Source: an uncultured Pirellulales bacterium (GTDB lineage: Bacteria; Planctomycetota; Phycisphaerae; Sedimentisphaerales; Anaerobacaceae). Taken from it: DNA of 64,000 nt. The stretch is taken from NCBI GenBank assembly GCA_964391985.1, contig CAYMOE010000008.1, forward strand, positions 19,090 to 83,089, given 5' to 3'. Shown here in pieces: positions 1,001 through 15,106 of the stretch (its first letter is position 1; each line of letters opens with the position of its first letter). Position numbers and translations under genes: made by a program. Under the pieces are notes generated by a model that had not been told where the DNA came from, ran no database searches, and saw only the letters and a program-made list of their open reading frames with translations.

Positions 1001-1291
1001 ATGAGTATCAGCCGGATTATTCACGAGCAAAAAGACCAAATCAACCAAATTGCTGCCAAGCATGGAGTTCGAAATGTTCGTATTTTTGGCTCTGTAGCTC
1101 GCGGTGAAGACAAGCCACAAAGCGATATAGATTTTCTGGTCGAAGCTGGAACAAACACAAGCTCATGGTTTCCTGCCGGCTTAGTACTTGACCTCGAGCA
1201 GTTACTTGGCCGCCATGTAGATGTAGTCACAGAAAAAGCTCTTAATCCACATATCCGTGATTACGTTCTTCGCGAGGCCAAAGCCTTATGA
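1001..1291 (+). CDS. mntA: MNT-type nucleotidyltransferase antitoxin (MntA-like)
   Basis: 96 aa with the minimal nucleotidyltransferase motif GSVARGE...DIDFLVE (GSxxRG ... DxD). Its stop overlaps the start of the downstream HEPN gene as ATGA. Confidence 0.8.
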   Translation: MSISRIIHEQKDQINQIAAKHGVRNVRIFGSVARGEDKPQSDIDFLVEAGTNTSSWFPAGLVLDLEQLLGRHVDVVTEKALNPHIRDYVLREAKAL

Positions 1292-1611
1292 AAGACGATT
1301 CCGTTTATCTGCGTTATATTTTGGATTGTATCAGTCGCATAGAAGAAAATGCATCGTCAGGTAAAGATGAGTTCATGGCTTCTCATACTATTCAAGATGC
1401 GGTTTTGAGAAATCTTCAGACGATGACCGAATCGACTCAAAGACTTTCGGAATCACTTAAAGAAGCACATCCGGAAATAGAATGGCACTATATATCCGCT
1501 TTTCGCAATGTTCTTGTTCACGATTACCTCGGCATTGATATCGAAAAAATTTGGGAAATTACACAGAACGAGGTTCCGAAGCTAAAACAGGCAATCCTTG
1601 CCATGCTCTAA
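1288..1611 (+). CDS. hepT: HEPN/DUF86 toxin (HepT-like RNase)
   Basis: 107 aa with the RNVLVHDY motif (the R-x4-H-x-Y HEPN active site) near the C-terminus. It overlaps the upstream MNT gene by 4 nt. Confidence 0.8.
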   Translation: MKDDSVYLRYILDCISRIEENASSGKDEFMASHTIQDAVLRNLQTMTESTQRLSESLKEAHPEIEWHYISAFRNVLVHDYLGIDIEKIWEITQNEVPKLKQAILAML

Positions 1612-1654: not shown

Positions 1655-3961
1655 TTAATGACGAGAACTTTGTTTTGCTGCAATGACTGCTTGGCCGAGC
1701 GAAATTCCGCCGTCATTACTCGGCACATAGCGGTTAAATAATACGACAAAATCCGCTTGGTTCAAGTATTGAATTAACCGATTTGTCAAATATCTGTTAC
1801 AAAAAACCCCGCCGCTGAGGGCGACTTTGTTCAATTTGCTCATATCTCTTGCCTTTTTGGCCATTGCGCACAGACCTGCAGCTATACAATTATGAAATTT
1901 CGCTGAAATTTCTGAACAAGAACGCTGTTTTTGAGCGTCAGCGACTAATTGCCTTATCATTCTACGCAGGTCCAATTGAACCGGTTCTTCGGCAATATTT
2001 ATTATGTCAAAATCGTACCTTTGCTCATTGGTATCATCCGCGCAGGCTTCGAACGCCATCGGAAGCTGGGCTTCGAAATGATTATAATTGCCAAGTCCGG
2101 CTATCGCAGCAGCCGCATCAAAAACCCGTCCGAGACTTGATGTATTGACTGTATTTATTTTTTTGCGAATCTGCTCCCAAATCAGCTTCTGTTTTTCAAT
2201 ATTCGGCTCGATTTTTTCTAAAAGTCCTACGAATTTTGACAAATCAAATTCATCTCCGTAAGCCTGACTTAATAACGCAATTACAGGCCTGATAGCCTCT
2301 TTTGATGCTAAATCACCCCCAGCTAAAGGATAATATGCCAGATGTCCGAACCTCTCGAAGTTTTCGAGGTCGGCTATAAGACACTCACAGCCCCAAACCG
2401 CTCCGTCGGTGCCGTAACCGGTCCCGTCACATTCTAATCCGATAACTTTTTCATCTAATTCATATTCAGCCAAAACCGACGCGATATGAGCCCAGTGATG
2501 CTGAATCTTGACGAACTTGGCATTTTTAAGCGACCCTGCGTATTGGCTTGAAAAATATCCGGGATGAAGGTCGCAAGCTATGATTTGAGGCTCGACCTCG
2601 AAAAGCTTTTCCAAATGATTTATGGATTTTACATAATGACGATAAACGCTCGCGTCTTCCATATCGCCGATATGTTCGCTGACGATTAGCTGATTGGATT
2701 TGACATAGCTGAACGTATTTTTCAAATCAGAGCCGGTCGCCAAAATATCTTTTTGGCTGACTGTTTTTGCTATTATCGGAGTCGGAACATATCCTCTGGC
2801 CCGGCGCAATAAAACAGGCTCATTATTAATAAAATGAACGATAGAATCGTCCACCTGCCGATAGATTTTTCGATTGTGCATTAAAAAAACATCTGCAGCT
2901 TCACTCAACTTTTCCAAGGCAGCCTCATTTTCACATATAAGAGGCTCATCGGAGATATTTCCGCTTGTCATAACAAGAACTTCCGGCCCCTGCTCGAATA
3001 AAAGCCAGTGCAATGGTGCATAGCAAAGCATAAATCCGTAAGAATTAACCCCTTCAGCAGCCGCTGATGCTATAAGACTATTTGGTTTTTTAGGCAGCAG
3101 AACAATCGGGCTTTCAGGACTTTTTAAAACTTCCTGCTCAATTTCGCCGACTACAGCGTATTTTTTTATCTTCTCGACAGAATCCGTCATCATCGCAAAA
3201 GGCTTGGCATCGCGTTTTTTTCTTAGGCGTAATCTCAGTACAGCCTCATTGTCCAAAGCATTTACCGCAAGATGAAACCCTCCGATACCTTTTATCGCTG
3301 CGATTTTGCCGTCTAAGAGCATTTGGGCTGTTTGCTTTATAACCGCGTCACTATTTTTTTCGATGATTTTTCCGGTATTGTCCGTCAGCCAAATCTTCGG
3401 CCCGCATTGCGGACATGCAACCGGCTGAGCGTGAAACCGCCGGTCTGAAGGATTTTTATATTGAGCGGAACATTTCCCGCACATTTTAAATTCCGACATC
3501 GTCGTATTAGGCCGGTCATAGGGTATCGTTTTCACTATCGAATATCTCGGCCCGCAGTTTGTGCAGTTTATAAAAGGATACCTGTACCTGAAGTTCGACG
3601 GGTCGCGCATTTCCCCAAGACAATCCTCGCATACAGCTATATCAGGACTAACTTGCGACAAAGCCGTGCCGGCTCGCTCACTCGATTTAATTGCAAATTC
3701 TTCTTCTGATTCGGTTAACGGGATGTCGACGGTTTTGCAGGACTTTATTTGGGTCAGCGGTGTAACTTTGGAATCCTGTCCTAAATTGTGAACGAACTTT
3801 GTAATCACCTCGGTTTCGCCTTGAGCTTCTATGGTAACACCTTTTGTGTCGTTATATATGAACCCTGTCAGGTTGAGCTGTTTGGCTAACCGATAAACCG
3901 CAGGCCGGAATCCTACCCCCTGAATTCTTCCGGTTATAAATATTCGTTTTCTTACGTTCAA
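1655..3961 (-). CDS. hypF: [NiFe]-hydrogenase maturation carbamoyltransferase HypF
   Basis: 768 aa. It has an N-terminal acylphosphatase-like segment (ITGRIQGVGFRP), paired CxxC zinc-finger motifs (CEDCLGE..., CTNCGPRYS, CGKCSAQY, CPQCGP), and YrdC-like and Kae1-like C-terminal regions. Confidence 0.95.
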   Translation of the reverse strand: MNVRKRIFITGRIQGVGFRPAVYRLAKQLNLTGFIYNDTKGVTIEAQGETEVITKFVHNLGQDSKVTPLTQIKSCKTVDIPLTESEEEFAIKSSERAGTALSQVSPDIAVCEDCLGEMRDPSNFRYRYPFINCTNCGPRYSIVKTIPYDRPNTTMSEFKMCGKCSAQYKNPSDRRFHAQPVACPQCGPKIWLTDNTGKIIEKNSDAVIKQTAQMLLDGKIAAIKGIGGFHLAVNALDNEAVLRLRLRKKRDAKPFAMMTDSVEKIKKYAVVGEIEQEVLKSPESPIVLLPKKPNSLIASAAAEGVNSYGFMLCYAPLHWLLFEQGPEVLVMTSGNISDEPLICENEAALEKLSEAADVFLMHNRKIYRQVDDSIVHFINNEPVLLRRARGYVPTPIIAKTVSQKDILATGSDLKNTFSYVKSNQLIVSEHIGDMEDASVYRHYVKSINHLEKLFEVEPQIIACDLHPGYFSSQYAGSLKNAKFVKIQHHWAHIASVLAEYELDEKVIGLECDGTGYGTDGAVWGCECLIADLENFERFGHLAYYPLAGGDLASKEAIRPVIALLSQAYGDEFDLSKFVGLLEKIEPNIEKQKLIWEQIRKKINTVNTSSLGRVFDAAAAIAGLGNYNHFEAQLPMAFEACADDTNEQRYDFDIINIAEEPVQLDLRRMIRQLVADAQKQRSCSEISAKFHNCIAAGLCAMAKKARDMSKLNKVALSGGVFCNRYLTNRLIQYLNQADFVVLFNRYVPSNDGGISLGQAVIAAKQSSRH

Positions 3962-4051
3962 ATCTCAGCCCGCCTGTCCAGCCTGATAAATAGAAGATAA
4001 TTCACTGCTTTGGCCGACATTATACTAAGCGGTGTTGGTATTGGAAATGAT

Positions 4052-4080
4052 TTGCAAAAACCGCGCGCAATTGTTAAAAT
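4052..4080 (+). promoter_or_regulatory. Sigma70-like promoter for tRNA-Ala
   Basis: TTGCAA (4052-4057), an exact 17-nt spacer, then TAAAAT (4075-4080). The -10 hexamer ends 11 nt before the first tRNA nucleotide. Confidence 0.5.
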
Positions 4081-4091
4081 AGCAAAAATAC

Positions 4092-4164
4092 GGGGCCGTA
4101 GCTCAGTTGGGAGAGCGCTTGCATGGCATGCAAGAGGCCGTGGGTTCGACTCCCATCGGCTCCA
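4092..4164 (+). tRNA. tRNA-Ala (anticodon GGC)
   Basis: The 73-nt sequence GGGGCCGTAGCTCAGTTGGGAGAGCGCTTGCATGGCATGCAAGAGGCCGTGGGTTCGACTCCCATCGGCTCCA folds by hand into a cloverleaf. It has a 7-bp acceptor stem, a G3:U70 alanine identity pair, an anticodon loop ATGGCAT and a TTCGA T-loop. CCA is not encoded. Confidence 0.9.
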
Positions 4165-4248
4165 TTAACAGTTTTTGGGGTAGGGTTGCGTATATATTAT
4201 ATGGGGCAATGGTATTCTGAGGCTTATTTTAAGAGGGAGACAGCCAAT

Positions 4249-4914
4249 ATGGATAAGACCAGAGAATTTGATTTAAAAATATCCCCAACCAAAATTTTTA
4301 CACCCGGGGTAGTAGTTTTACTTGTATTGCTGGTAATCGGCTTTATTTTTACCAATTATTTGCCGGTTTTTTCATTTGATAACCTTGCAATCAGTGGGCA
4401 GGGTCTAATTAAAGGAAAAATTTGGCAATTGGCAACTTATCCTTTTGTTAACGGCTGTTCTTTAAATCTTGTCTTTTCCTGCTTTACAATTCTCTTTATC
4501 GGTAGCGACGTCGAGCGGCAATGGCGGACAAAATCCTTTTTGATGTTATGGCTTGTTGTCTCGGTGATTTGCGGTTTATTGTGGGGATTAATTACAGCTC
4601 TTTTCGGAGGCGGCTATATTGGAACTGGTGCCGCAGCCTGTACTTATGGGATACTTGCGGTTTTCGGGCTGCTTAATCGGGGCAGAAGATTTTATTTCTT
4701 TATTGCCGTCCTTGAAGCTCAGTTTTTGGTGATTCTTTTTATTGTTGCCGGAATATTGATTAATATAGCACAGCCGATAGGGTTAATCTGGGTATTAGGA
4801 GCTCTTGTCGGCTATTTATATGTCAAATTGTGCTGGGGGTTGAAAAAACGCAAACAAGTAGCATTGCCAGGAAATACTGCCGCTCCCAAAGGGAATTTTA
4901 TTGAGATTGATTAA
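4249..4914 (+). CDS. Rhomboid-like polytopic membrane protein, catalytic residues apparently absent
   Basis: I trimmed the ORF track entry 4123-4914 to the ATG at 4249, because the longer form overlaps tRNA-Ala and AGGGAGA lies 8 nt upstream of 4249. The TM2-like stretch WQLATYPFVNG...LNLVFSCFTILFIGSDVERQW resembles the rhomboid WRxxTxxFxH...HxxxN...G..lE motif. The GxSG position reads IGTGAAACTYG and the TM6 His position reads LIWVLGALVG. Confidence 0.5.
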   Translation: MDKTREFDLKISPTKIFTPGVVVLLVLLVIGFIFTNYLPVFSFDNLAISGQGLIKGKIWQLATYPFVNGCSLNLVFSCFTILFIGSDVERQWRTKSFLMLWLVVSVICGLLWGLITALFGGGYIGTGAAACTYGILAVFGLLNRGRRFYFFIAVLEAQFLVILFIVAGILINIAQPIGLIWVLGALVGYLYVKLCWGLKKRKQVALPGNTAAPKGNFIEID

Positions 4915-4919
4915 AAAAG

Positions 4920-5750
4920 GTGAAGAAAGAATCTCATAAAGAAGCTGGTGTCCGTGCTGAAAAGGTGCGGGAAATTTTAAAAAAATGCACGCTTTGTCCG
5001 AGGTTATGCAAAGTTGACCGGATAAAGGGCGAAAAGGGGTATTGTGGTCTGGATGATAAAGTTCGCTGTTTTCGTGAAATGCTTCATCCTTTTGAAGAAA
5101 ATATACTGAATCCTTCTCATCAGATTTATTTTGCCGGTTGTAATTTAAAATGCGAGTTCTGTACGGTTGCGGAATGGAATAATCAGCCTTCTGCGGCTTG
5201 TGAAATTGTTCTAAGACAAATGGCTATGAAGATTGAACAGCGTAAAATGCAGGGTGCAAAAACACTGAATCTTTTAGGCGGAGAGCCGACTATCAGCATG
5301 CACGGTGTTTTTGAACTTCTTGGGAATATCAGTCCGGATACCTGTGTATTACTCAATTCAAATATGTATTTTGCAGGGGAATTGCTAAGACTTCTTGATG
5401 GTTTTGTTGATATTTATCTTGCTGATTTCAAGTGTGGAAACGACGGCTGTGCGGGGAAAATTCTGGGGACAGAGAATTATGTTAAGGTAGTAAGCAGCAA
5501 TATATTAACAGCCGCGAGACAGGCGGATATTATTGTAAGGCATCTGGTTCTTCCGGGACATTTTGAATGCTGCGCAAAACCCATTATAAACTGGATAGCC
5601 TCGGAAATACCCAATGTTAAATTAAGTCTTAGAAGAGATTATGTTCCGCCTGCCGAGGCTATTTATGCCCCAAAGGCATATCTTGATAAACCTGAGTACG
5701 AAAGAACTGTGGATTACGCTCGTAATTTACATCTTAATCTGATACAATGA
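4920..5750 (+). CDS. Radical SAM enzyme, PflX-like (pyruvate formate-lyase-activase-related, unknown substrate)
   Basis: GTG start. It has the CNLKCEFC (Cx3Cx2C) radical SAM cluster motif and an additional N-terminal Cys cluster, CTLCPRLCKV...GYCG. It starts 5 nt after the preceding gene. Confidence 0.8.
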   Translation: MKKESHKEAGVRAEKVREILKKCTLCPRLCKVDRIKGEKGYCGLDDKVRCFREMLHPFEENILNPSHQIYFAGCNLKCEFCTVAEWNNQPSAACEIVLRQMAMKIEQRKMQGAKTLNLLGGEPTISMHGVFELLGNISPDTCVLLNSNMYFAGELLRLLDGFVDIYLADFKCGNDGCAGKILGTENYVKVVSSNILTAARQADIIVRHLVLPGHFECCAKPIINWIASEIPNVKLSLRRDYVPPAEAIYAPKAYLDKPEYERTVDYARNLHLNLIQ

Positions 5751-5953
5751 GTAAAGCTAAAAAATACACAAAAGAACCCGGTGATCAGGAAATAAGGATA
5801 CTTGCTGATGGAAGGTTAGTATTGGTGGGGCTTGATGAAGACATGCTGAGTTTTGCAGATGCGTTTGTTCCCTTGAAAGAAACCAAAGAAAATAAGGGCA
5901 AAAGAGGATGGAAGAACCACAACAGGCGAAAAACATTCAGAAAGTTAATCTAA
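5747..5953 (+). CDS. Small hypothetical protein (68 aa, basic C-terminus)
   Basis: Its start overlaps the radical SAM stop as ATGA, and its 3' end overlaps the AAA+ gene by 46 nt. I recognise no family, so the coding status is uncertain. Confidence 0.35.
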   Translation: MSKAKKYTKEPGDQEIRILADGRLVLVGLDEDMLSFADAFVPLKETKENKGKRGWKNHNRRKTFRKLI

Positions 5954-7524
5954 ATGCAGCTCTTAAAAATCAGCTTGGCGAGCTTGAAGTGCTGATTAGA
6001 GCAAGGTACCCCCTTGTTTATGTGATAAGCTGGGAGGAACAGAGGGTTCAGGAAGAAATAATAAGAATCGCTGAAAGATTAGATAAAAAAGTATTTGAAT
6101 GGTCAATTAATACCGGTCTTATCCCTGCAGGAACGAGTATTTTATCACAAAAACATCGTGATACCGCGACACAAGACCCCCTTGTTGCACTTGACAGCGT
6201 GGTTGAGCAAGTTGACCCTGCTCTATATGTTTTTAAGGATTTTCATCCGTTTCTAAAGTCTCAAAATATGTCCGTGATACGCCGCCTTCGAGAAGTGGCG
6301 GCTTCATTGAAAAATACCTATAAAACGATAGTTATGGTCAGCCCAATGTTTGAAATGTCCGCTGAGCTTGAGAAGGATTTGACAATTATAGACTTTGATT
6401 TGCCGGGTGAAAAAGAATTAACGAAGCTGCTTGCTCATATCATTGACCAAGTCAAAGATAACCCAAAGCTGAATGTTAGAATAGACACGAAAGTCAAAGA
6501 GCAAATAGTGCATGCTCTTTTGGGTCTGACATTAAATGAAGCTGAAAACGTTTTGGCCAAGACACTTGTCCAGAATCGCGGATTGAATGAGAAAAGCCTG
6601 AGTATTATTAATTCCGAGAAAAAACAAATAATCAGAAAAAGCGGCCTGCTTGAATATTACGATACGGAAGAAAATTTAGGGTCAGTTGGCGGATTAGACG
6701 AGCTTAAAAGCTGGCTGCAAAAACGTTCCGTTGTTTTTTCCGAACAGGCTCGTCTTTTTGGTCTGCCGGCCCCTAAAGGCATTCTTCTTTTAGGAGTGCA
6801 GGGCTGCGGCAAAAGTCTGATGGCTAAAACTATCAGCAATATTTGGCAGTTACCATTATTGCGATTTGATGTCGGTCGAGTATTCGGCAGTTTGGTCGGG
6901 TCATCCGAACAAAATATGAGGCGCGCGATACAAGTGGCTGAATCGGTTTCGCCTGTGGTATTTTGGATTGATGAAATAGACAAAGCTTTCCGCGGTTCCC
7001 GCGGCAGTGATTCAGATACAGATGCCGGTACAAGCTCCAGAGTTTTCAGCACTTTTCTTACGTGGCTGTCGGAAAAAAAGAGCCCTGTATTTGTAGTTGC
7101 GACTGCCAATGATGTTTCCCTGCTCCCGCCGGAGCTGCTTCGAAAGGGCAGATTTGATGAAATTTTCTTTGTTGATTTGCCATGCTACAAGGAACGCGTA
7201 GAAATTTTCAGGGTTCATTTATCCAAACGCAAGATGGATGCGTCGAAGTTTGACCTTGACAAGTTAGCAAAAACAGCAAACGGCTACAGCGGCGCAGAAA
7301 TAGAAGAGGTTATCGTCAATGGTATGTTCAATGTCTTTTTTGAAAAAACCGAGTTAACAACGGCACGTCTGGTAGAAAGTATAACCCAAACAGTTCCTTT
7401 ATCGAAAACTATGAGTGAAAATATTGACCAATTGCGCAAATGGGCTGAGGGGCGTGCTCGTCAGGCGACAAGCGCTAAGCTCGCGGCCGAAGAAGGGCAT
7501 GGAACGCGCAGATTGGAACTATAA
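5908..7524 (+). CDS. Classical-clade AAA+ ATPase, Ycf46-like
   Basis: 538 aa. Walker A is GVQGCGKS, Walker B is VFWIDEIDK, and the second region of homology is LLRKGRFDEIFFVDLP. The roughly 280-aa N-terminal domain (YPLVYVISWEE...) is as I recall it in cyanobacterial and plastid Ycf46 proteins. Confidence 0.8.
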   Translation: MEEPQQAKNIQKVNLNAALKNQLGELEVLIRARYPLVYVISWEEQRVQEEIIRIAERLDKKVFEWSINTGLIPAGTSILSQKHRDTATQDPLVALDSVVEQVDPALYVFKDFHPFLKSQNMSVIRRLREVAASLKNTYKTIVMVSPMFEMSAELEKDLTIIDFDLPGEKELTKLLAHIIDQVKDNPKLNVRIDTKVKEQIVHALLGLTLNEAENVLAKTLVQNRGLNEKSLSIINSEKKQIIRKSGLLEYYDTEENLGSVGGLDELKSWLQKRSVVFSEQARLFGLPAPKGILLLGVQGCGKSLMAKTISNIWQLPLLRFDVGRVFGSLVGSSEQNMRRAIQVAESVSPVVFWIDEIDKAFRGSRGSDSDTDAGTSSRVFSTFLTWLSEKKSPVFVVATANDVSLLPPELLRKGRFDEIFFVDLPCYKERVEIFRVHLSKRKMDASKFDLDKLAKTANGYSGAEIEEVIVNGMFNVFFEKTELTTARLVESITQTVPLSKTMSENIDQLRKWAEGRARQATSAKLAAEEGHGTRRLEL

Positions 7525-7535
7525 TTTTTTATGGG

Positions 7536-8021
7536 GTGGAATTTATGAGCACAGTAGTAATTTTAGCGCCTATTATTATCAGTAACTGGCCTGTTATTCT
7601 TGCGGCTGTGACCGGAGCAGCCTCAGCACTTGGTTTTGTGTCTGTAAAAGAGGCTGTTAAAGCAAAGACAGAGGTAGAAGGGCAGGTTCAGAATAAAGAA
7701 AGCGTTGAGCTGGAAGTTCAGGAAAGCCAAGTCCTTGCCGAAAGCGTGAAAACCGGACAGGAAATCGTTCTTCAGAAAGGAACTGTTGAATTGCGAGTCT
7801 TTCGAGATGAGCGGGGGCGCTGTAAAGTCTGCGCTAAAGGAGTTGGTCATAATAAAGCTGAACTTCGCACAATTGCTCAGGAATTTATGGAAAAAATGAC
7901 TCAATGCTTTGTTTATAACCGAGTAATGAGCGAAATAAAGAACAAGAATTTTAATATTGTGAACGAAGAAGTAATGGATGACCAGAGTATTCGTATCAAT
8001 ATCCGCAGATGGGTGGACTGA
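7536..8021 (+). CDS. Membrane-anchored DUF1257(Ycf35)-like protein
   Basis: 161 aa with an N-terminal hydrophobic helix (VVILAPIIISNWPVILAAVTGAASALGF). The C-terminal ...IVNEEVMDDQSIRINIRRW ending resembles my recollection of DUF1257. Its position between an AAA+ gene and a DUF2997 gene is typical for that family. The start could instead be the ATG at 7545. Confidence 0.45.
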   Translation: MEFMSTVVILAPIIISNWPVILAAVTGAASALGFVSVKEAVKAKTEVEGQVQNKESVELEVQESQVLAESVKTGQEIVLQKGTVELRVFRDERGRCKVCAKGVGHNKAELRTIAQEFMEKMTQCFVYNRVMSEIKNKNFNIVNEEVMDDQSIRINIRRWVD

Positions 8022-8024
8022 AAA

Positions 8025-8240
8025 ATGGCACAGCACGAAGTTGAGATAAGCATTTCAAAAAACGGCGAGGTTAAAGTTCACGTCAAAGGTGCAAAGGGAA
8101 AGGCCTGTCTTGCTTATTCGGAATGGCTGGCCAATGTTGTCGGTAAAATTAAAAACCAGAAGCACACCAGTGAATTGTACGAGCCTGAAACTAAAGCGCG
8201 TATAAACCTTCATCAGGACTTGAAAGTAAAAGAGCAGTAA
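8025..8240 (+). CDS. DUF2997-like small protein
   Basis: 71 aa. MAQHEVEISISKNGEVKVHVKGAKGKACLAYSEWLANVVG...TSELYE matches the remembered DUF2997 pattern (I..I..dG.V...V.G.kG..C...t..Le..lG...T.EYY). The gap to each neighbouring gene is 3 nt. Confidence 0.6.
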   Translation: MAQHEVEISISKNGEVKVHVKGAKGKACLAYSEWLANVVGKIKNQKHTSELYEPETKARINLHQDLKVKEQ

Positions 8241-8243
8241 TAG

Positions 8244-9221
8244 ATGAGATGTCCTCGATGTCAATTTGAAAACATCCCGGGAAAGACACGGTGTTTCAAG
8301 TGCGACTCGATATTAGAAATATCAGCAGGCTCTATTTCTATTCATCCGCCGCGCATGCCTAACTGGAAAAAGCCCGTTCGTAATATTTTCAGAATGTTCC
8401 GCAGACGGCATATTGTTCCTGATATTGAAGTCGGCTTACGATGGGGCAGATATTCTGAATTAGGACGTTATTCGGCTGTTATTTTGGATATTATTCCGGG
8501 ATTGGGCCATGTGTTTCAAGGGTGCTTTAAAAAAGTTTGGTGGTTAGTGCTTTTATGGTGGGTTTTTATAGCATCAGGGATTTATTTTTTCCCGAGTTCG
8601 CTGGGTTTTGCACTATTAGGAATTGGAATCGGAATTCATATCTGGATTATAACGAGGCACAGTCTTTGGAAGGATATTGAAAACTTTAAAAGTAAGGCTT
8701 TTGCGGTGATTGGCCTGTATTTATTTCTTTTATTCGTATATCGTTATAGTCCTCGGATTTTTCTTCCTGTTACCGGAGGATATACGACGTTAACAATACC
8801 TTGGAATAATGTTGAACCGAGCGATTATTTTCTGGCGAGGCGAAATATCAGGCTTGATATGCTTGAACGGGGTTCTTTGGTTTTGATAGAACCGCGGGCT
8901 ATTGGGCGCAGAAATACAACAACCGTTATTGGTCAGGTTGCAGCTTTGCCGGGAGAGTTAATTGCGATTGAGGGCAATTCTTTTGTTATTAACGGTCAAG
9001 TAATGGACAACAGCCGGTATCCGGTACCAAGATGGTTGCATAGAATCAAGATGTCGCTTAATATGGATTCAGATTCTTATTTTATAAGTTTGGAATATAG
9101 ACCCTATGGTATGCCGAACGATGAATATATAAGGCAGACTTGCATATATAAATTTGAGGATATGCGCGCAAGAGCCTTTATGAGGTGGTCGCCAATTAGT
9201 AAAAGGGGAGTTATCGAGTAA
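8244..9221 (+). CDS. Zinc-ribbon / multi-TM protein with a signal-peptidase-I-like (S26 fold) C-terminal domain lacking the Ser/Lys dyad
   Basis: The N-terminus carries CPRCQFEN...CFKCDS, followed by three to four hydrophobic helices. The C-terminal RGSLVLIEP...VIGQVAALPGELIAIEGNSFVINGQ mirrors the S26 GDiVvF...KRViGlPGDtv...l.iNG blocks. However, the SMxPT box reads NNVEPS and the KR of box D reads GQ. Confidence 0.5.
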   Translation: MRCPRCQFENIPGKTRCFKCDSILEISAGSISIHPPRMPNWKKPVRNIFRMFRRRHIVPDIEVGLRWGRYSELGRYSAVILDIIPGLGHVFQGCFKKVWWLVLLWWVFIASGIYFFPSSLGFALLGIGIGIHIWIITRHSLWKDIENFKSKAFAVIGLYLFLLFVYRYSPRIFLPVTGGYTTLTIPWNNVEPSDYFLARRNIRLDMLERGSLVLIEPRAIGRRNTTTVIGQVAALPGELIAIEGNSFVINGQVMDNSRYPVPRWLHRIKMSLNMDSDSYFISLEYRPYGMPNDEYIRQTCIYKFEDMRARAFMRWSPISKRGVIE

Positions 9222-9225
9222 TATA

Positions 9226-9978
9226 ATGGCACGTTTTTCACAACTTGAATTTGGTGATTCTTTGCCGAAGAAAGGCCCTGAGGGTGAGCCTATTCGTAAG
9301 GCCGATTTTTTTTATCAAGAGGCCTTAAAATACTGGTTCGCAGCAAATTTTGAACTTGCTTTACGCAATTTTTCGAGGGTTCTCGAAGAAAATCCTTCTA
9401 TTTTTCCTGCATGGCCATGGCAGATTCTGATGCTTATTGAGCTTGGCGAATATCCGGAAGCAATAGTTTGGGCCGATAAAGCGCTGGAATCTTTCCCTGA
9501 ACATCCTGAATTGCTTGCTCTAAAATCATTGGCATATTGCCGTGACGCGAAACTCGAAAAAGCCTTAGCTTTTTCTGATAATTCTGTTACAAAAAACGAT
9601 GTCACACCAAGAGTTTGGCTTGCTCGTGCCGAGATTTTGCTGCATCGCAAAAGCGCGGTTGCAGAAAATTGCATAAGTAAAGCTTTATCCAGTGCTAATC
9701 AGAATAGCCCGGTAATTAAATTAGAAGCAGCCAGATTGCTGAGGCGTAAACACAAATACTCCAGTGCTATTGAGCATTTAAGCTCAGTTGTTCAGGCTGT
9801 TCCCAAATCTGCTTTAGCATGGTATGAGCTTGGATGCTGTCAGGCTAAGTTGGGATTGAGCCAAGCAAAAGCCTCGCTTGAGCAAAGCTGTCAGTTTAAT
9901 CCCGAATGGGATGAACCGAGGAAAGAACTGTATCGAATTGGGAAAAGATGGTTTTTTAGAAGATTATTTGGCGGGTAA
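9226..9978 (+). CDS. TPR-repeat protein
   Basis: 250 aa with several 34-residue helical repeats carrying the A/L/Y/W...A...F..AL...P signature, for example AWYELGCCQAKLGLSQAKASLEQSCQFNPEW. Confidence 0.7.
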   Translation: MARFSQLEFGDSLPKKGPEGEPIRKADFFYQEALKYWFAANFELALRNFSRVLEENPSIFPAWPWQILMLIELGEYPEAIVWADKALESFPEHPELLALKSLAYCRDAKLEKALAFSDNSVTKNDVTPRVWLARAEILLHRKSAVAENCISKALSSANQNSPVIKLEAARLLRRKHKYSSAIEHLSSVVQAVPKSALAWYELGCCQAKLGLSQAKASLEQSCQFNPEWDEPRKELYRIGKRWFFRRLFGG

Positions 9979-9981
9979 GAT

Positions 9982-11070
9982 ATGAATGTATCATCTCAAA
10001 TGGCTCAATTATTGATATTAGCGAGAAAAGAGAATGCTTCCGATGTTCACATTGTAGCGGGATTGCCGCCGATGTATCGAATCAACGGAGAGATAGTTTT
10101 TGCTGACAGGCCGCCGCTAACTCGAGAGGATACATCGCAGTTAGCAATGAGTTTTTTAAATGAAGAACAGCGTAAGGCTTTTTCGCAGAGCTGGCAGTTG
10201 TGCAGTTCGATAAATGACCCGAATCTCGGCCGTTTTCGAATTTCACTATACTATCATGCCGGCAATCCGGAACTTGCGATAAGGTCGATTATGGACCATG
10301 TCAGAACCCGTCAGGAACTTCTTTTGCCCACCGAAATAGAGGATTTATGCAGATTAAGCAACGGCTTAGTTCTTATCACAGGGCCGACCGGCAGCGGCAA
10401 AACAACAACACTAAATTATATGATAGACCTTATAAATAGTGAAAGACGGTGTAAGATTATTACTATCGAGGACCCCGTAGAATATGTTCATAGGCGTAAA
10501 AGAGCTGTGGTTGTCCAACAAGAGCTATATACTGATGTTAAGAGCTTTTCAAGTGCTTTGATTCATGTTTTGAGGCAGGACCCTGATGTTATCTGTGTCG
10601 GCGAAATGAGAGACCTTGAAACAACTGCAACTGCGCTGATAGCTGCTGAAACAGGCCATCTGGTTATAGCTACGTGCCATACGCCTAATACAGTACAAAC
10701 GGTTGACCGCATTGTATCAATATTCCCCGAAAATCAGCAGTCGCAGGTCTTTACGCAATTAGCTAATTGTCTTAAAGGAATTTTATCTCAAAGGCTGGTT
10801 CCTTCTGTTGATAAGAAAGGTCGGAAACTCGCGACGGAGTTTTTAATGATAAGCCCTGCCGCTAAAAAAATGATTCGTGAACGACAATTACACCAATTAA
10901 CCAGTATTATCCAAATGGGCAGAAAAGCCGGCATGCATACACTTGATGATTCTTTGATTGCTTTATACCAAACTGGCGATATAACTTACGATACTTTGCT
11001 TAGCAATTCGCAGGATATTGTCGATGTGAAATCAAAAATTCACAAACCATCCAGCGAAGATAATTTTTAA
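9982..11070 (+). CDS. pilT: PilT-family retraction-type secretion ATPase (orphan)
   Basis: 362 aa. Walker A is GPTGSGKTTT, the Asp box/Walker B is DPDVICVGEMRD, and the His box is TGHLVIATCHT. The segment AAKKMIRERQLHQL resembles the PilT AIRNLIRExKxHQ motif. Confidence 0.85.
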   Translation: MNVSSQMAQLLILARKENASDVHIVAGLPPMYRINGEIVFADRPPLTREDTSQLAMSFLNEEQRKAFSQSWQLCSSINDPNLGRFRISLYYHAGNPELAIRSIMDHVRTRQELLLPTEIEDLCRLSNGLVLITGPTGSGKTTTLNYMIDLINSERRCKIITIEDPVEYVHRRKRAVVVQQELYTDVKSFSSALIHVLRQDPDVICVGEMRDLETTATALIAAETGHLVIATCHTPNTVQTVDRIVSIFPENQQSQVFTQLANCLKGILSQRLVPSVDKKGRKLATEFLMISPAAKKMIRERQLHQLTSIIQMGRKAGMHTLDDSLIALYQTGDITYDTLLSNSQDIVDVKSKIHKPSSEDNF

Positions 11071-11081
11071 TAGACAAAAGT

Positions 11082-12251
11082 TTATTTTGTCAGCACTTCA
11101 ATTTTCAGCGGATTTTCGAGCATCAGGGCTTTATTTTTGACATAAGTTTGCCATTTTTCTTCGCTGTTGAATTCGGGGGATTTACTCCAGCAGGCCCCTG
11201 TATAATAAGTTATTGAATTTGCATCTTTTAGCTTTGTCAGCAGAACATTCTGGTTATCGGTAACGGCAGACTGATTTCCGGCTGCGGTTTGCGGAAGTAT
11301 CACAGCACAGCCGATTGTACCGTTGTTCGGGTCGGGATTGGCCCAATAAGCCAGCGTTGTTTTATCATCGCTGAAAACCGCATTGCCGCCGTTAGCGGTT
11401 TTAACAATCCCCACAGCCAAAATAACCTCATTTATATCACTGTCGAAAGTGCTTTGAATTTTGTTGAAATTCGAGCCGAGGTCGATGCTTATGCGTTTTG
11501 TTTCACCGGAAATTTTACCGCCCATATCCCAAGGTTTATAAGTCAATTCGAAAATCGAGCGTATCGGCCCGTTCGCGATAATCTTCCACGAAGCGAAATT
11601 TTCCGACTGCAAGACCTGATTTTCATGCCATGCTCCAAGTCCGCCGCAGCCGAGACTTTTGCCGACAGTATAAAAATCGAACCCCATATCGTTATCTGTG
11701 TGATAATACGCATCGCCTTTGGCATAAAGTTTTTCCATAACCGGATATTCAGCCCGTTTGACCCAGACATCGATTCCGCTGCTGGTCATTTCGGTTCTCT
11801 GTAATTCCGGGCCGTACATCCGAAAAGCGATTCTGTCGTTTTCCCAAGCGAAGTCGTCTTTTCGCTGAGGAACGAACATCGCGTTAGTCCGCACTTTTAA
11901 ATCGACATCAGGAGCTTCGCCATTTGGGCTGATTCTAAAAGTTTTACTTTGATTGGCGCGGAAATCCGCCTGAAATATCAGTTCGTCATTTTTTCCGTCA
12001 CCGTTGTTATCAATAGCTTGGGATAAAACGAATTTTTCGGTTTGTTCATCGAACACGGAAATTTCCCCTGTCGTAAATCGAGCTGTTGATGGAAGCTCGG
12101 TCAGATTAACGCTGACTGTCTCATTGATACGGCTCTGGTCCAGAGGGTTGGTAACCTTGATTTTCAATGAATCATCACCGCAGACTGTGATAAAGCTGAA
12201 TGCCGTTAAGATAAAGATGTGCCCGATTAAGCTGATTTTTGAAGTTTTCAT
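11082..12251 (-). CDS. Secreted DUF4861-like protein (pectin/uronate-utilisation associated)
   Basis: 389 aa with a signal-peptide-like N-terminus. The segments AWENDRIAFRMYGP, GIDVWVKR and HTDNDMGFDFYTVGKSLGCGG match my recollection of DUF4861. The GH105 gene is adjacent. Confidence 0.55.
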   Translation of the reverse strand: MKTSKISLIGHIFILTAFSFITVCGDDSLKIKVTNPLDQSRINETVSVNLTELPSTARFTTGEISVFDEQTEKFVLSQAIDNNGDGKNDELIFQADFRANQSKTFRISPNGEAPDVDLKVRTNAMFVPQRKDDFAWENDRIAFRMYGPELQRTEMTSSGIDVWVKRAEYPVMEKLYAKGDAYYHTDNDMGFDFYTVGKSLGCGGLGAWHENQVLQSENFASWKIIANGPIRSIFELTYKPWDMGGKISGETKRISIDLGSNFNKIQSTFDSDINEVILAVGIVKTANGGNAVFSDDKTTLAYWANPDPNNGTIGCAVILPQTAAGNQSAVTDNQNVLLTKLKDANSITYYTGACWSKSPEFNSEEKWQTYVKNKALMLENPLKIEVLTK

Positions 12252-12423
12252 TTTTGACCTTTCTGTTTAAAAGAATGATACTTCAAAGCCCATTTCTAAA
12301 GAAATTATGACCGGGTTATTTTACATCTTCTGCTGAAAAAATGATATGGTTTTTTAGACAGGGCAACAGGCCGTCTAAAATGACATTTTTCTTTGATAAT
12401 TAAATTTAAATACCTGAGTGATT

Positions 12424-12465
12424 GATAAAAAAATGGGCTGACACGGGAGGTGTAATTGTCAGCCC
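12424..12465 (-). terminator. Rho-independent terminator downstream of the GH105 gene
   Basis: GGGCTGACA (12435-12443) pairs with TGTCAGCCC (12457-12465), giving a 9-bp stem with a 13-nt loop. On the minus strand the stem is followed by ATTTTTTTAT. It lies 128 nt downstream of the GH105 stop. Confidence 0.6.
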
Positions 12466-12592
12466 AAACGGATTCATCATCCGTCCTCCAAGTATAAATA
12501 CGATTGGCGTGAAATTCGGTGCTTGGGAAAAGTTTACAAATTTTTAAAGTTTTTTACAGGCTATAAAAGACACCAAGTCAGCGGCGGTGCAG

Positions 12593-13867
12593 TTACTTTT
12601 CAGACAGTGACTTTTCGTACCACAGGGCGGCTCGCATAAGAGCTCCTACCCCTTTATAGTCATTGTCCGGCCTTTCCACTTCGACATAATAGCTGTAACT
12701 GCCGTCACTGCTTAGACTTCCGACTTTGACTGTATCGGTAAACGCTAATTTGCCGTCAGCATCGTAAAAGATTTTATTCGCAAGCAGGCCTTTAAAAGCT
12801 TTGCGTGAGATATCCAGATAGAAATCAGGTTTATCGAGGTATCCTTTTTCAGCGGCTCTTCCGAGGGCATAGGCAAACATAGCCGAACATGATGATTCGG
12901 TGTAATTATCAGGATATTTTTCGCGCGGGTAGCCTTTGTCCACAACTTGCCACCATAGATGCGTTTCGGGGTCTTGATAATACGCAAGGGCTTCGGCAAG
13001 GTCGTTTAAGATTTTAATTATCTGCGGCCGATATGAGTTATCTTTGGGCAGGTAGTCAAGACAATCAACAATAGCCATCGCATACCAGCCGATTGCTCTG
13101 CCCCAAAATTCGGGACAGTGTCCTGTTTCGGGGTCTGCCCAAACCTGCGGCTTTTTGGGCGGGTCCTCGAAGGCCGAGCTATCCCAGCCGTGATACATAA
13201 GTCCTTTGCGGGTCGAGTCATCAGGATAAAGCTGTGTGTCTTGAGTATGCTTTGCGATTAGAGTTAGCTGATACCCGACGACATCAAACCAATTATTCGC
13301 TTGGAACATTTCGGCGTATTGGACGGCAAAAGGCGCGTACATAAACAAACCATCAAGCCACATTTGATAAGGATAGCGCTGTTTGTGCCAGAATCCCCCG
13401 TTGAAAGTTTTCGGCTGATTTTCAAGTTGAACGAGAAGCGTTTCGGCTGCCCGTTTGTATTTTTCTTCGCCGAATTGTTTATACATAGCCAGACAAAGTT
13501 TTCCCGGCTGAATCATATCAAGGTTATAGTCTTTTTGATGAAATCCGATGATTTTACCTTCGTCGGTGAGCATTTCGTCAAGCCAGTTTTTGACCCATTT
13601 GAGGTGAGCAGGGTTTTGCGAGACCTGCCATTTTTCATATAACGACTGAACCATAAATGCATTGTCGTATCGCCATCGGCTTGGCGGATCGAGGCGGATT
13701 ATAAGCTCGGCTATATCGTCGGAAACGAGTTTCTGCGTGGGTTTCGGTGCTGACGCACAGCCGCTGATGAGCGGCAAAAATATTGAAAATAAGGTTAAAA
13801 ACAGCAATTTGTCGTGGCTTATAAGGGCAGAACGTTTCAACTTTTTTATATAATCAAAAGTAAACAT
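12593..13867 (-). CDS. Unsaturated rhamnogalacturonyl/glucuronyl hydrolase (GH105/GH88 family, YteR-like)
   Basis: 424 aa with a lipoprotein-type signal (LPLISGCAS). The segments MWLDGLFMYAPFAVQYA and WGRAIGWYAMAIVD are typical of the alpha6/alpha6-barrel GH105/GH88 hydrolases. Confidence 0.75.
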   Translation of the reverse strand: MFTFDYIKKLKRSALISHDKLLFLTLFSIFLPLISGCASAPKPTQKLVSDDIAELIIRLDPPSRWRYDNAFMVQSLYEKWQVSQNPAHLKWVKNWLDEMLTDEGKIIGFHQKDYNLDMIQPGKLCLAMYKQFGEEKYKRAAETLLVQLENQPKTFNGGFWHKQRYPYQMWLDGLFMYAPFAVQYAEMFQANNWFDVVGYQLTLIAKHTQDTQLYPDDSTRKGLMYHGWDSSAFEDPPKKPQVWADPETGHCPEFWGRAIGWYAMAIVDCLDYLPKDNSYRPQIIKILNDLAEALAYYQDPETHLWWQVVDKGYPREKYPDNYTESSCSAMFAYALGRAAEKGYLDKPDFYLDISRKAFKGLLANKIFYDADGKLAFTDTVKVGSLSSDGSYSYYVEVERPDNDYKGVGALMRAALWYEKSLSEK

Positions 13868-14440: not shown

Positions 14441-15106
14441 TCATTTCAACAATTTTTCAAGCAACGGCTTTAGTTTGCGTATTGCATTTCCGCGGTGGGA
14501 GATTGCGTTCTTTTCGTCGGGCAGCATTTGGGCAACTGTTTTATTCACCTGCGGAACGAACATAATCGGGTCATAACCAAAACCGCCGGTGCCTGTCTTG
14601 TTTCGAGCAATAAAACCTTCGAGCTTACCTTGCGTCTCGATAAGGATGTTATCAACACTTGCCAAACATATACTGCAAATAAATCTGGCGGCTCTCCTTT
14701 CAGAGGGTACATCTTTCATAAGCTCGAGAACTTTGGCGATATTTTTGTGGTCTATCAATGTGCGTTCTTTGTCTTTTGCTCCGCTGAAACGCGCACTTTT
14801 TACGCCGGGCTGACCGCCAAGAGCATCTATAACCAAGCCAGAATCATCAGCTAAAGTCCATACTCCGGTTTGCTTTGCATAGCCGAGAGCTTTTTTGCGG
14901 GCGTTTTCAGCGAAGGTTTCGCCGTCTTCTATAACTTCCTTTAAATTCGGAAAATCGGCAAGGCTCAACCATTGGATGTCCGCATCAAGCATAGCGGAAA
15001 GCTCGGCCTGTTTGCCGGGATTAGTCGTAGCAATAAGAATTTTTTGTTTATTTTTCAAAACACTATTTGCCTTGCAGCCTAATAATTTCTTTTTTGATTT
15101 CTTCAA
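14441..15106 (-). CDS. rdgB: Non-canonical purine NTP pyrophosphatase (dITP/XTP pyrophosphatase, RdgB/HAM1)
   Basis: ILIATTNPGKQAE...FGYDPIF-like FGYDPIMFVP...ISHRGNA motifs are present. The ATG at 15106 would overlap the upstream REase gene by 44 nt. The in-frame TTG at 15058 (giving MKNKQKILIATTN) is an equally plausible start. Confidence 0.9.
   Translation of the reverse strand: MKKSKKKLLGCKANSVLKNKQKILIATTNPGKQAELSAMLDADIQWLSLADFPNLKEVIEDGETFAENARKKALGYAKQTGVWTLADDSGLVIDALGGQPGVKSARFSGAKDKERTLIDHKNIAKVLELMKDVPSERRAARFICSICLASVDNILIETQGKLEGFIARNKTGTGGFGYDPIMFVPQVNKTVAQMLPDEKNAISHRGNAIRKLKPLLEKLLK

Follow-up and report, generated by a model that had tools for sequence, protein, structure and literature searches.

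A class-wide nine-gene operon of Phycisphaerae joins genes for a Ycf46-like AAA+ ATPase, DUF1257 and DUF2997 to two dead protease folds, a radical SAM enzyme and a PilT-family ATPase

What task could unite two ATPase motors, two membrane-protease folds that lack their catalytic residues, the orphan families DUF1257 and DUF2997, and a radical S-adenosylmethionine (SAM) enzyme in one run of nine genes? The question is raised by positions 4249-11070 of a 64,000-nucleotide (nt) stretch of contig CAYMOE010000008.1 from an uncultured Pirellulales bacterium (hereafter the window), where the list of open reading frames (ORFs) gives nine co-directional ORFs, g1 to g9, on the + strand. The nine genes are one operon, present in nearly all related genomes. 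Their composition is new and their function unproven, and they contain a Ycf46-like/DUF1257/DUF2997 neighbourhood already known from databases. Our favoured reading, held tentatively and as somewhat more apt to be wrong than right, is a membrane-tethered AAA+ machine for extraction or remodelling, with the two pseudo-proteases as substrate receptors.

The unity of the block is established by comparison across genomes. With each species represented by one genome, 80 loci were found to encode relatives of the AAA+ protein, and these loci were searched by tblastn and with hidden Markov models (HMMs) built from orthologues; the synteny set comprised 61 non-redundant loci of Phycisphaerae type (AAA identity 64-83%), 47 of them evaluable. 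All nine genes are present in 46 of the 61 loci, strictly collinear in 45 of these 46, and 14 loci miss genes only at contig ends. The sole exception is locus L058 (11590-21590), where g5-g9 are replaced by unrelated ORFs despite 10 kb of contig beyond the AAA gene, the locus being either rearranged or chimerically assembled. The surroundings of the block change: none of the HypF, HepT, DUF4861 and GH88 genes that flank it in the window occurs within 10 kb of it elsewhere, and the flanks of loci L001 and L002 differ from each other. Because synteny and tight junctions persist while the flanks change, the nine genes are a single conserved unit, and the coupled operon that the first-pass annotation had read from the window is intact in 46 of the 47 evaluable loci, clearly passing the synteny check that the annotation had set for it. 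The block occurs in essentially every related genome, with 64-83% identity of g4 and a composition (GC 0.39-0.43) resembling its surroundings, and this is the pattern of a vertically inherited, housekeeping-type locus rather than of a patchy defence island. A protein 100% identical to one of the window was found, and the source is a metagenome-assembled genome (MAG) of Phycisphaerae. About two dozen closely related MAGs are titled 'uncultured Pirellulales', and their proteins are as near to those of the window as are those of Sedimentisphaerales MAGs; either these labels are unreliable, or the block reaches into Planctomycetia.

The packing of the genes is equally regular. The layout and the junctions between successive genes (+5, -4 as ATGA, -46, +11, +3, +3, +4 and +3 nt from g1 to g9) were reproduced exactly from the ORF list, apart from a revised start of g5, and the median junctions in 27 genomes are +4, -4, +3, +6, -4 and +3. 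The +11 gap between g4 and g5 stands for the ORF list, in which g5 opens with GTG 7536, and probably not for the real junction: since g5 orthologues are 155-158 amino acids (aa) long and align with an N-terminal MSTV, and since a Shine-Dalgarno-like GGGGTGG lies upstream of ATG 7545, translation probably starts at this ATG and the junction is probably +20. The start of g1 at 4249 was correctly called, because the alternative start at 4123 lies within the gene for tRNA-Ala(GGC), through which the mechanical ORF of 263 aa runs. The unit consists of exactly nine genes because its flanks are divergent on the upstream side and convergent on the downstream side (Table 1).

Table 1. Genes, terminal motifs and surroundings of the operon, in positions of the window
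Feature	Position	Strand	Description
MNT-HepT pair	1001-1611	+	nucleotidyltransferase and HepT-like RNase, 4-nt overlap
HypF	1655-3961	-	divergent upstream neighbour; [NiFe]-hydrogenase maturation
Promoter-like site	4051-4080		ahead of tRNA-Ala
tRNA-Ala(GGC)	4092-4164	+	84 nt upstream of g1
Leader	4165-4248	+	between tRNA-Ala and g1; Shine-Dalgarno AAGAGGGAGA 8 nt before ATG
g1	4249-4914 (ORF from 4123 or 4249)	+	rhomboid-fold pseudoprotease, 221 aa, about 6 transmembrane (TM) segments, both termini cytoplasmic
g1 tail FVDID	4897-4911	+	
g2	4920-5750	+	small radical SAM enzyme, activase/QueE/NrdG-like clade (PflX-like), 276 aa, GTG start
g3	5747-5953	+	conserved small protein, 68 aa; ATGA overlap with g2, 46-nt overlap with g4
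g3 hairpin plus helix	5780-5870	+	
g4	5908-7524	+	Ycf46-like classical AAA+ ATPase, 538 aa
g4 terminus RKLEI	7507-7521	+	
g5	7545-8021 (ORF opens GTG 7536)	+	membrane-anchored DUF1257 (Ycf35-family) protein, 158 aa
g5 hairpin plus helix	about 7780-7850	+	
g5 terminus VRRWVD	8001-8018	+	
g6	8025-8240	+	71-aa protein of the DUF2997 family; motifs KG..GK.C and TSE-YE(P) invariant
g6 hairpin plus helix	8034-8090	+	
g7	8244-9221	+	Zn-ribbon (C3, C6, C17, C20), about 3 TM helices, C-terminal S26 fold, 325 aa
g8	9226-9978	+	cytoplasmic tetratricopeptide repeat (TPR) protein, 250 aa; TPR_16 E = 8.8e-15
g8 N-terminus M-x-R-F-x-x-L-E-F	9226-9252	+	
g9	9982-11070	+	PilT/PilU-family hexameric ATPase, 362 aa
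DUF4861	11082-12251	-	convergent downstream neighbour, ending 11 nt past g9
DUF4861 and GH88	11082-13867	-	GH88: unsaturated glucuronyl hydrolase; polysaccharide use
MjaI and methylase	15063-16987	-	MjaI-family restriction endonuclease beside N6/N4 DNA methylase with C-terminal SNase domain

Profile searches against Pfam and NCBIfam reproduced all the family assignments of the first-pass annotation, g3 being without a family. The first protein, g1, matches the Pfam family Rhomboid (PF01694, 33.7 bits, cut-off 22.6), plus DUF1751, and its hydropathy profile has at least five clear TM segments with alternating positive-inside loops, the N-in/C-in pattern of a six-TM rhomboid. Aligned with Haemophilus influenzae GlpG (2nr9), it carries GAAA for the GxSG motif, Val for the catalytic His, WQ for WR and NxxxS for HxxxN. 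The consensus of 55 orthologues is likewise devoid of the catalytic Ser and His and has the same WR and HxxxN losses, bearing out the earlier description of a rhomboid-like protein without Ser/His. The orthologues also share a C-terminal tail of the form G-x-F-V/I-D/E-I-D, which is FVDID in the window. As for Derlin-type motifs, the W of WR is kept and the R replaced by Q (IWQL), and there is no SHP box, with the other C-terminal peptide FVDID found instead.

The second pseudo-protease is g7, which couples its N-terminal Zn-ribbon and TM helices, with the motifs PPRM..WKKP.R and IPGLGH, to a domain scoring 24.0 bits against Pfam Peptidase_S26 (cut-off 22.9). Its AlphaFold2 (AF2) model has a mean predicted local distance difference test score (pLDDT) of 85.6, and in a Foldseek search every one of the 22 best matches is either an S26 signal peptidase or one of the inactive homologues SipA/LepA, the best 20 with probability 1.00 (SpsB, E = 2.4e-05; LepB, E = 2.5e-04; SipA 4n31, E = 3.2e-04 with a target TM-score of 0.59-0.62). 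Profile comparison with the PDB returned matches to type I signal peptidase (SPase I) only, with Gly at the position of the catalytic Lys in the alignment to 4nv4. The Lys is replaced by Gly, Ala or Val in 28 orthologues, and the Ser position is occupied by Ile/Val-Pro in a manual register set relative to the invariant D194. The proposed signal-peptidase-like protein lacking Ser/Lys is therefore confirmed in its fold by the model and in the absence of the dyad by the orthologues. The N-terminal region (97 aa, basic, cytoplasmic) includes the Zn-ribbon, and on the AF2 count of three helices, on which this placement depends, the S26 domain would probably lie outside the membrane. The family comprises 237 cluster representatives at E <= 1e-30, from Phycisphaerae-type genomes.

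Both ATPases retain their catalytic motifs. The AAA+ protein g4 (Pfam AAA, E = 1.4e-28) begins with a family-specific N-domain (residues 1-255), after which come one AAA module and a lid. Its nearest solved relatives are the D2 and D1 rings of Cdc48/p97 (E = 2.4e-58), followed by VAT, NSF and AFG2, and no solved or Pfam relative was found for the N-domain. Invariant in 21 orthologues are the Walker A motif GCGKS, the Walker B motif DEID, the sensor 1 residue N401, the Arg fingers R412/R415 and the pore loop GSLVGSSE. Pore loop 1 is S-L-V-G and not aromatic, and aligns with KMAG in Cdc48 D1 and MWYG in D2. The C-terminal RKLEI is conserved in the orthologue alignment. In the PHROG collection, g4 matches phrog_8638 over its full length (E = 4.7e-153), a family without annotated function; the label 'Ycf46-like' rests on a JGI COG label and on likeness to homologues from cyanobacterial plasmids. 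The second motor, g9, scores 396.7 bits against the PilT/PilU family TIGR01420 (curated cut-off 319.1) and E = 1.3e-44 against T2SSE, and keeps the Walker A motif GPTGSGKTT, GEMRD and the His box ATCHT. Its identity to orthologues is 61-81%, and it is always the last gene of the block.

Between the motors lie the two orphan families. The DUF1257 protein g5 (Pfam, 24.7 bits, cut-off 22.2) begins with a TM helix (residues 7-25 by hydropathy), followed by an acidic linker and an alpha+beta DUF1257 domain on the K-rich side, from which the domain is presumably cytoplasmic; its C-terminal VRRWVD is conserved among orthologues. The AF2 model (pLDDT 76-85 in the domain, 67.2 overall) combines a sheet of three strands with one long helix and two additional strands. 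A profile search of the PDB with DUF1257 gave nothing significant, the best matches being to a TM-like stretch (E = 0.019) and to SUI1 (0.024). The DUF2997 protein g6 (Pfam, 46.3 bits, cut-off 24.1) is 57-79% identical to its orthologues, has no TM segment in the hydropathy scan, and matches phrog_23133 (E = 3.1e-06), which is again a family without annotated function. The invariance of its two motifs holds in an alignment that includes the distant locus L059, described below.

The radical SAM enzyme g2 has no TM segment by hydropathy scan. It scores 32.9 bits against Pfam Radical_SAM (PF04055, cut-off 29.5), plus Fer4_12, and is 41-65% identical to its orthologues. A CX3CX2C motif (C74, C78, C81) and an N-terminal CxxCxxxC...C cluster are kept in 59 orthologues. 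Matches to the named NCBIfam equivalogs NrdG2, PflA, QueE and viperin are all sub-threshold, the best being NrdG2 at 37.8 bits (cut-off 131). The next gene, g3, is a real gene, conserved at the protein level over the N-terminal 45 residues in an alignment of 38 orthologues, with the core KPYKRKPGDFEIRIL-DGRVV-I-PDE-L-E-A followed by a variable tail. Its size had been given correctly in the earlier description of a 68-aa basic peptide; the basic tail is specific to the window, and what is conserved is the folded-looking N-terminal part. No Pfam, NCBIfam or PHROG family was found for g3, and the hydropathy scan found no TM segment. The ATGA overlap of g2 and g3 is retained in 21 of 26 genomes. 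A common hairpin-plus-helix motif, E-I/V-x-I/V-x-x-D/G-G-R/E-V ... E-L..A, is seen in g3, g5 and g6. It may represent one small fold in three copies, a hint and not a finding, the homology of g3, DUF2997 and mid-DUF1257 by hhalign being weak (probability 8-19%, P = 0.001-0.004).

The remaining protein, g8, contains TPR repeats and no TM segment by hydropathy scan. Its N-terminal motif is kept across phyla, including Nitrospirales and L059, and its C-terminus is basic, amphipathic and conserved (GFFRRLFG). The conserved terminal peptides of g1, g4, g5 and g8 are candidate docking motifs. Acidic C-terminal peptides are the ligands of TPR carboxylate-clamp domains in Hsp70/Hsp90 co-chaperones, and by analogy the conserved acidic C-terminal peptides here suggest that g8 could bridge g1 or g5 to the AAA+ ring.

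Part of the block has relatives well outside the Phycisphaerae, which reveal how it was put together. In L059, a locus of an unclassified MAG whose AAA protein is 50% identical to g4, the order is tandem AAA paralogue, g3-like 64-aa ORF, AAA, DUF1257, TPR, DUF2997, membrane protein and PilT. The 93%-identical metagenome contig L097 likewise keeps AAA, the g3-like ORF, DUF1257, TPR, DUF2997, a membrane protein with PGLGH and, again as its last gene, PilT. The DUF1257 protein of L059 carries the TM anchor, and its 171-aa membrane protein has the g7-like PPR, LPGLGH and TM-His motifs, without Zn-ribbon and S26 domain. Both contigs stop at the first AAA gene, so that the g1/g2 region lies beyond their sequence. 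The tandem AAA+ paralogues of L059 (75-3164) and L097 are 51% identical, with the g3-like ORF between them, which hints at a hetero-oligomeric ring. Nitrospirales and related MAGs have only the AAA gene and an orthologous TPR gene (HMM E = 1e-57 to 1e-76); the orthologous TPR gene follows the AAA gene in L059, L060, L063 and L064, and in L060 a divergent T2SSE ATPase lies beside the AAA-TPR pair. Remoter AAA homologues (about 42% identity, in Myxococcota, Desulfuromonadales and others) are solitary genes.

A different subset of the genes is found on mobile elements, where 13 plasmid or phage loci with full-length g4 homologues were inspected. These homologues, N-domain included, are 38-48% identical to g4 on plasmids and about 30-35% in phages. 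The AAA+ gene is adjoined by DUF2997 in 10 of the 13 loci, by DUF1257 in 7, and by a small 4Fe-4S/radical SAM protein of NrdG/QueE type also in 7, and the core is hosted by Bacillota, Actinomycetota, Spirochaetota and Cyanobacteria. Examples are Paenibacillus polymyxa pPPM1a (AAA, DUF1257, DUF2997, 4Fe-4S), Rhodococcus and Arthrobacter plasmids (AAA, hypothetical protein, DUF2997, HhH, 4Fe-4S), Bacillus plasmids, Rhizobium phage RHph_I4, Treponema (4Fe-4S, AAA) and three cyanobacterial plasmids, one of which has the core beside GrpE-Hsp70. Mycobacteriophage Firecracker encodes a full-length AAA homologue with neighbours lacking Pfam matches. A tblastn search of plasmids with DUF2997 found nothing at E <= 0.01, although annotated DUF2997 genes exist there, because so short and divergent a family escapes tblastn at this level. 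Orthology of g2 to the plasmid 4Fe-4S proteins was considered and rejected: as the similarity (21-22% identity) is limited to the generic radical SAM core, the link is claimed at family level only. Two features of these loci may be recorded in passing. In Treponema succinifaciens pTRESU01 (L084, 5345-13076), the 4Fe-4S/radical SAM and AAA+ genes are followed by a 'phage baseplate assembly protein V' and a 1164-aa protein, which may be a contractile-injection or prophage context of the core. In Bacillus, Arthrobacter and Rhodococcus plasmids (L086, L088, L095), an HHH_3 ComEA-like protein lies between DUF2997 and the 4Fe-4S protein.

The same families are on record in cyanobacteria and plastids. 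DUF1257 is Ycf35 (PMC13060386), a DUF2997-ycf35-fed7 cluster has been described in cyanobacteria (PMC4284462), and ycf35 and ycf46 are for the most part present or absent together in the plastid genomes of red algae (PMC5940233). In Synechococcus, ycf46 lies in an operon of three genes whose inducers are severe stress, darkness and ppGpp (bioRxiv 10.1101/2025.07.21.665879). The operon resembles this Ycf46/Ycf35/DUF2997 module in that g4 aligns over its full length with plasmid AAA+ proteins encoded beside DUF1257 and DUF2997, and in having an Fe-S protein as an extra partner (radical SAM here and on plasmids, fed7 in cyanobacteria). It differs in the TM anchor of DUF1257 and in the setting of a nine-gene operon with pseudo-proteases, TPR protein and PilT. 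The anchor appears to be specific to Phycisphaerae and L059, its absence from the plasmid and phage proteins being judged from their length (102-147 aa as annotated) and alignment.

From sequence comparison, then, g2, g4, g5 and g6 represent an ancient, mobile core module, and since these four genes form an old module found elsewhere, the locus is a lineage-specific elaboration rather than a wholly unique assembly. On the same kind of evidence, g3, g8, g9 and the g7 membrane module joined at or before the split of the Phycisphaerae and L059 lineages. So far, only Phycisphaerae-type genomes show the S26 domain, and the rhomboid-like protein is possibly confined to them as well.

From these observations we infer the physical assembly, topology, client identity and extraction activity of our favoured model, the membrane-tethered remodelling machine. 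At its centre would stand a Cdc48-type, Ycf46-like AAA+ hexamer with DUF1257, DUF2997 and the small radical SAM enzyme, a formerly soluble core that would have been recruited to the membrane in Phycisphaerae because DUF1257 acquired an N-terminal TM anchor. The dead rhomboid g1 would bind and destabilise transmembrane helices in the manner of a Derlin, and the S26-like domain of g7, probably periplasmic, would keep stretches of extended peptide bound on the outer side, as the inactive signal-peptidase chaperone SipA does. The TPR adaptor g8 and the PilT-type hexameric ATPase g9 would complete the set. In the proposed cycle, the pseudo-proteases would choose a membrane or envelope protein, and docking onto the AAA+ ring would proceed through the TPR protein and the terminal peptides (FVDID of g1, RRWVD of g5 and M.RF..LEF of the TPR protein). 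The client would then be extracted, unfolded or re-sorted by ATP hydrolysis of the AAA+ ring, and possibly also of PilT at the membrane platform. A radical SAM step would modify or activate g3, DUF2997, DUF1257 or the client.

The unfoldase character of the machine is supported by its PDB relatives Cdc48/p97, VAT and NSF, by the invariance of Walker A and B, sensor 1 and the Arg fingers, and by the plasmid core located beside GrpE-Hsp70. A scaffold role of g1 and g7 is supported by the conservation of both protease folds, with loss of the catalytic residues in all orthologues. Several points weigh on the other side. The core occurs in phages and plasmids without a membrane partner, and its basic activity therefore need not concern membranes. 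Neither a protease nor a ubiquitin-like tag nor an obvious client is encoded in the operon, and extraction alone does not account for the radical SAM enzyme. The Leu of pore loop 1 (GSLVG) resembles the D1 ring of p97, which is less clearly translocating, and DUF1257 is without an informative structural match, the best hit of its AF2 model in a Foldseek search of the PDB having E = 0.056. In g7, the hydropathy scan finds two TM helices and AF2 shows three, and because the two disagree its topology is something that we infer.

Among known systems, rhomboid-family proteins work with AAA+ machines in the pairs Derlin-Cdc48 (PMC12615303) and YqgP-FtsH (PMC7231995). The first-pass annotation had drawn an analogy with eukaryotic endoplasmic-reticulum-associated degradation (ERAD), which finds support in the Cdc48/p97-nearest AAA+ protein, the conserved pseudo-rhomboid encoded with it (46 of 47 evaluable genomes) and the DUF1257 anchor; the cytoplasmic tail peptide of g1 could also act as the SHP box of Derlin does. 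It fails in that g4 contains only one AAA module and its N-domain is unrelated, that g1 has WQ for WR, and that the radical SAM, DUF1257, DUF2997 and PilT proteins have no ERAD counterpart. No ubiquitin-like tag, E3 ligase or protease partner is found among the nine products or within 10 kb of the block in loci L001-L003, and no proteasome component is present at the operon. The likeness is one of analogy only, and nothing points to a common descent of the system. In Bacillus subtilis YqgP-FtsH, a rhomboid-family adaptor likewise hands membrane proteins to an AAA+ machine. By contrast, YqgP is active and FtsH has its own protease domain and TM anchor, whereas in the operon the rhomboid is dead, the AAA+ protein lacks a protease domain, and the tether would be a separate DUF1257 subunit. 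SipA and LepA of Streptococcus pyogenes, inactive SPase I homologues that act as pilus-assembly chaperones, share with g7 the S26 fold without Ser/Lys. They differ from it in that g7 has the Zn-ribbon and a three-helix module with PPRM and PGLGH; the identity is about 16%, and no sortase or pilin genes lie near g7.

Searches for a named system of this kind were negative, in agreement with the earlier remark that none was known. The full-text literature yielded no paper describing the operon or linking its families, and with PADLOC v2 no two components match one system. The partial PADLOC hits are to IetA/TRIP13 (the AAA module of g4), pVip (the radical SAM core of g2) and mad8/mad3 (the P-loop of g9). 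Since the locus fits none of the named systems considered (active rhomboid and S26 proteases, ERAD, the type IV pilus machinery, named radical SAM equivalogs and known defence systems), its composition is new. Identity with a defence system was rejected, the PADLOC hits being partial and scattered over different systems.

A rival account puts the radical SAM enzyme at the centre. According to this explanation, which is unlikely in our judgement, g2 modifies or activates g3, DUF2997, DUF1257 or a client that the AAA+ ring has unfolded or presented to it, and the membrane parts only localise or export the product. It has several features of the data in its favour: the small radical SAM/4Fe-4S protein accompanies AAA-DUF1257-DUF2997 in 7 of the 13 mobile loci, in four phyla, the ferredoxin fed7 takes its place beside the cyanobacterial DUF2997-ycf35, and g2 belongs to an activase/QueE-like clade. 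The ATGA overlap couples g2 translationally to g3, and short motifs hardly vary in g3 and DUF2997, among them the invariant Cys and TSE-YE(P) of the latter. The correspondence with the mobile loci is loosened, however, by the distance between the PflX-like g2 of 276 aa and the NrdG-like enzymes of the plasmids (140-272 aa as annotated), and neither a glycyl-radical motif nor a Cys-rich precursor can be seen in g3, g5 or g6. Maturation would also leave PilT, the TPR protein and the two pseudo-proteases unexplained, and L059 (cut upstream) and many AAA-TPR loci show no radical SAM gene.

An accessory role in type IV pili is distinctly improbable. Here g9 would be a retraction motor, the pseudo-proteases would bind the N-terminal TM helix of pilins, and the AAA+ protein would recycle or extract subunits. 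Like the type IVa ATPases PilT and PilU, g9 exceeds the curated TIGR01420 cut-off and keeps Walker A/B and the His box, and it is the constant last gene here, in L059 and in L097; the T2SSE ATPase beside the AAA-TPR pair of L060 and the matches of the S26 domain to SipA/LepA, which are needed for pilus polymerisation, point the same way. The difference from PilT/PilU lies in the setting: g9 is unlinked to pilus genes and, in each of two distant lineages, closes an AAA+ operon. Pilus biogenesis genes (pilin, PilB, PilC, PilM-Q, prepilin peptidase) are absent within 10 kb in L001-L003, and the nine Pfam-scanned flanking ORFs of the window contain no pilus domains, in line with the earlier statement that no pilus gene is present at the locus. 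Moreover, SipA works with sortase pili and not with type IV pili, and the AAA-DUF1257-DUF2997 core is widespread without PilT.

Weaker still, and very doubtful, is the proposal that the operon is a domesticated mobile-element or stress module, in which the phage or plasmid core serves in defence, anti-defence or a growth-arrest checkpoint resembling Synechococcus ycf46. The frequency of the core on plasmids and in phages, the toxin-antitoxin genes near it on some plasmids, the generic likeness of the AAA module to IetA and the induction of the cyanobacterial ycf46 operon by severe stress, darkness and ppGpp would all suit such a role. They are opposed by the PADLOC results, with matches only for g4, g2 and g9, all partial and to different systems, and by class-wide vertical conservation at 64-83% AAA identity and native GC. 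That the nine genes form a chance neighbourhood of unrelated same-strand genes, as the very different textbook roles of their families might suggest, is hardly credible and is contradicted by the synteny data: a gene set conserved in 46 of 47 evaluable genomes while its flanks change, conserved junctions that overlap or span 3-6 nt, and subsets of the genes that recur in other phyla.

In the surroundings of the operon, the sole promoter-like site upstream of g1 lies ahead of the tRNA-Ala gene, which is weak evidence, and scans for promoters and terminators were uninformative, with site counts no higher than in shuffled sequence. The tRNA-Ala gene was considered as part of the operon and rejected, because in 28 other loci no such gene precedes the block; here it is merely an adjacent gene that may share a promoter with the operon. 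The window contains no paralogue of the nine operon proteins. Upstream, the MNT-HepT pair is a type VII toxin-antitoxin system, and downstream lie DUF4861 and GH88 genes for polysaccharide use. Further on, the MjaI endonuclease and methylase genes have a GC of 0.37, compared with about 0.42 around them, and are probably an acquired restriction-modification island.

The surprise of the locus is the presence of two dead proteases, two motors and a radical SAM enzyme within one class-wide operon. The orphan families Ycf46, Ycf35 (DUF1257) and DUF2997 span phages, plasmids, cyanobacteria and algal plastids, and the operon ties them into one translationally coupled unit with defined partners (a radical SAM enzyme, a TPR adaptor, a membrane platform, a PilT motor and two pseudo-proteases), which constitutes a testable interaction map. 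It also provides a clear bacterial case in which two protease folds have been kept without catalytic residues over hundreds of species-level lineages, beside a Cdc48-like ATPase; in the literature found, a dead protease next to such an ATPase occurs only in eukaryotic ERAD (Derlin-Cdc48). At its boldest, the operon could be read as a bacterial counterpart of eukaryotic dislocation, in which a dead, Derlin-like rhomboid and a dead signal peptidase feed a Cdc48-like ring that is tethered by Ycf35/DUF1257 and DUF2997 and aided by PilT and the radical SAM enzyme, all built on a four-gene core that extends from phages to plastids. We consider this a long shot; if true, it would provide the long-orphan plastid genes ycf35 and ycf46 with their first biochemical role and place an ERAD-like principle in Planctomycetota. 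The extraction model, if it holds, would give bacteria a new way to control the quality of membrane proteins or to remodel the envelope, and would do so in Planctomycetota, a phylum noted for its unusual envelopes.

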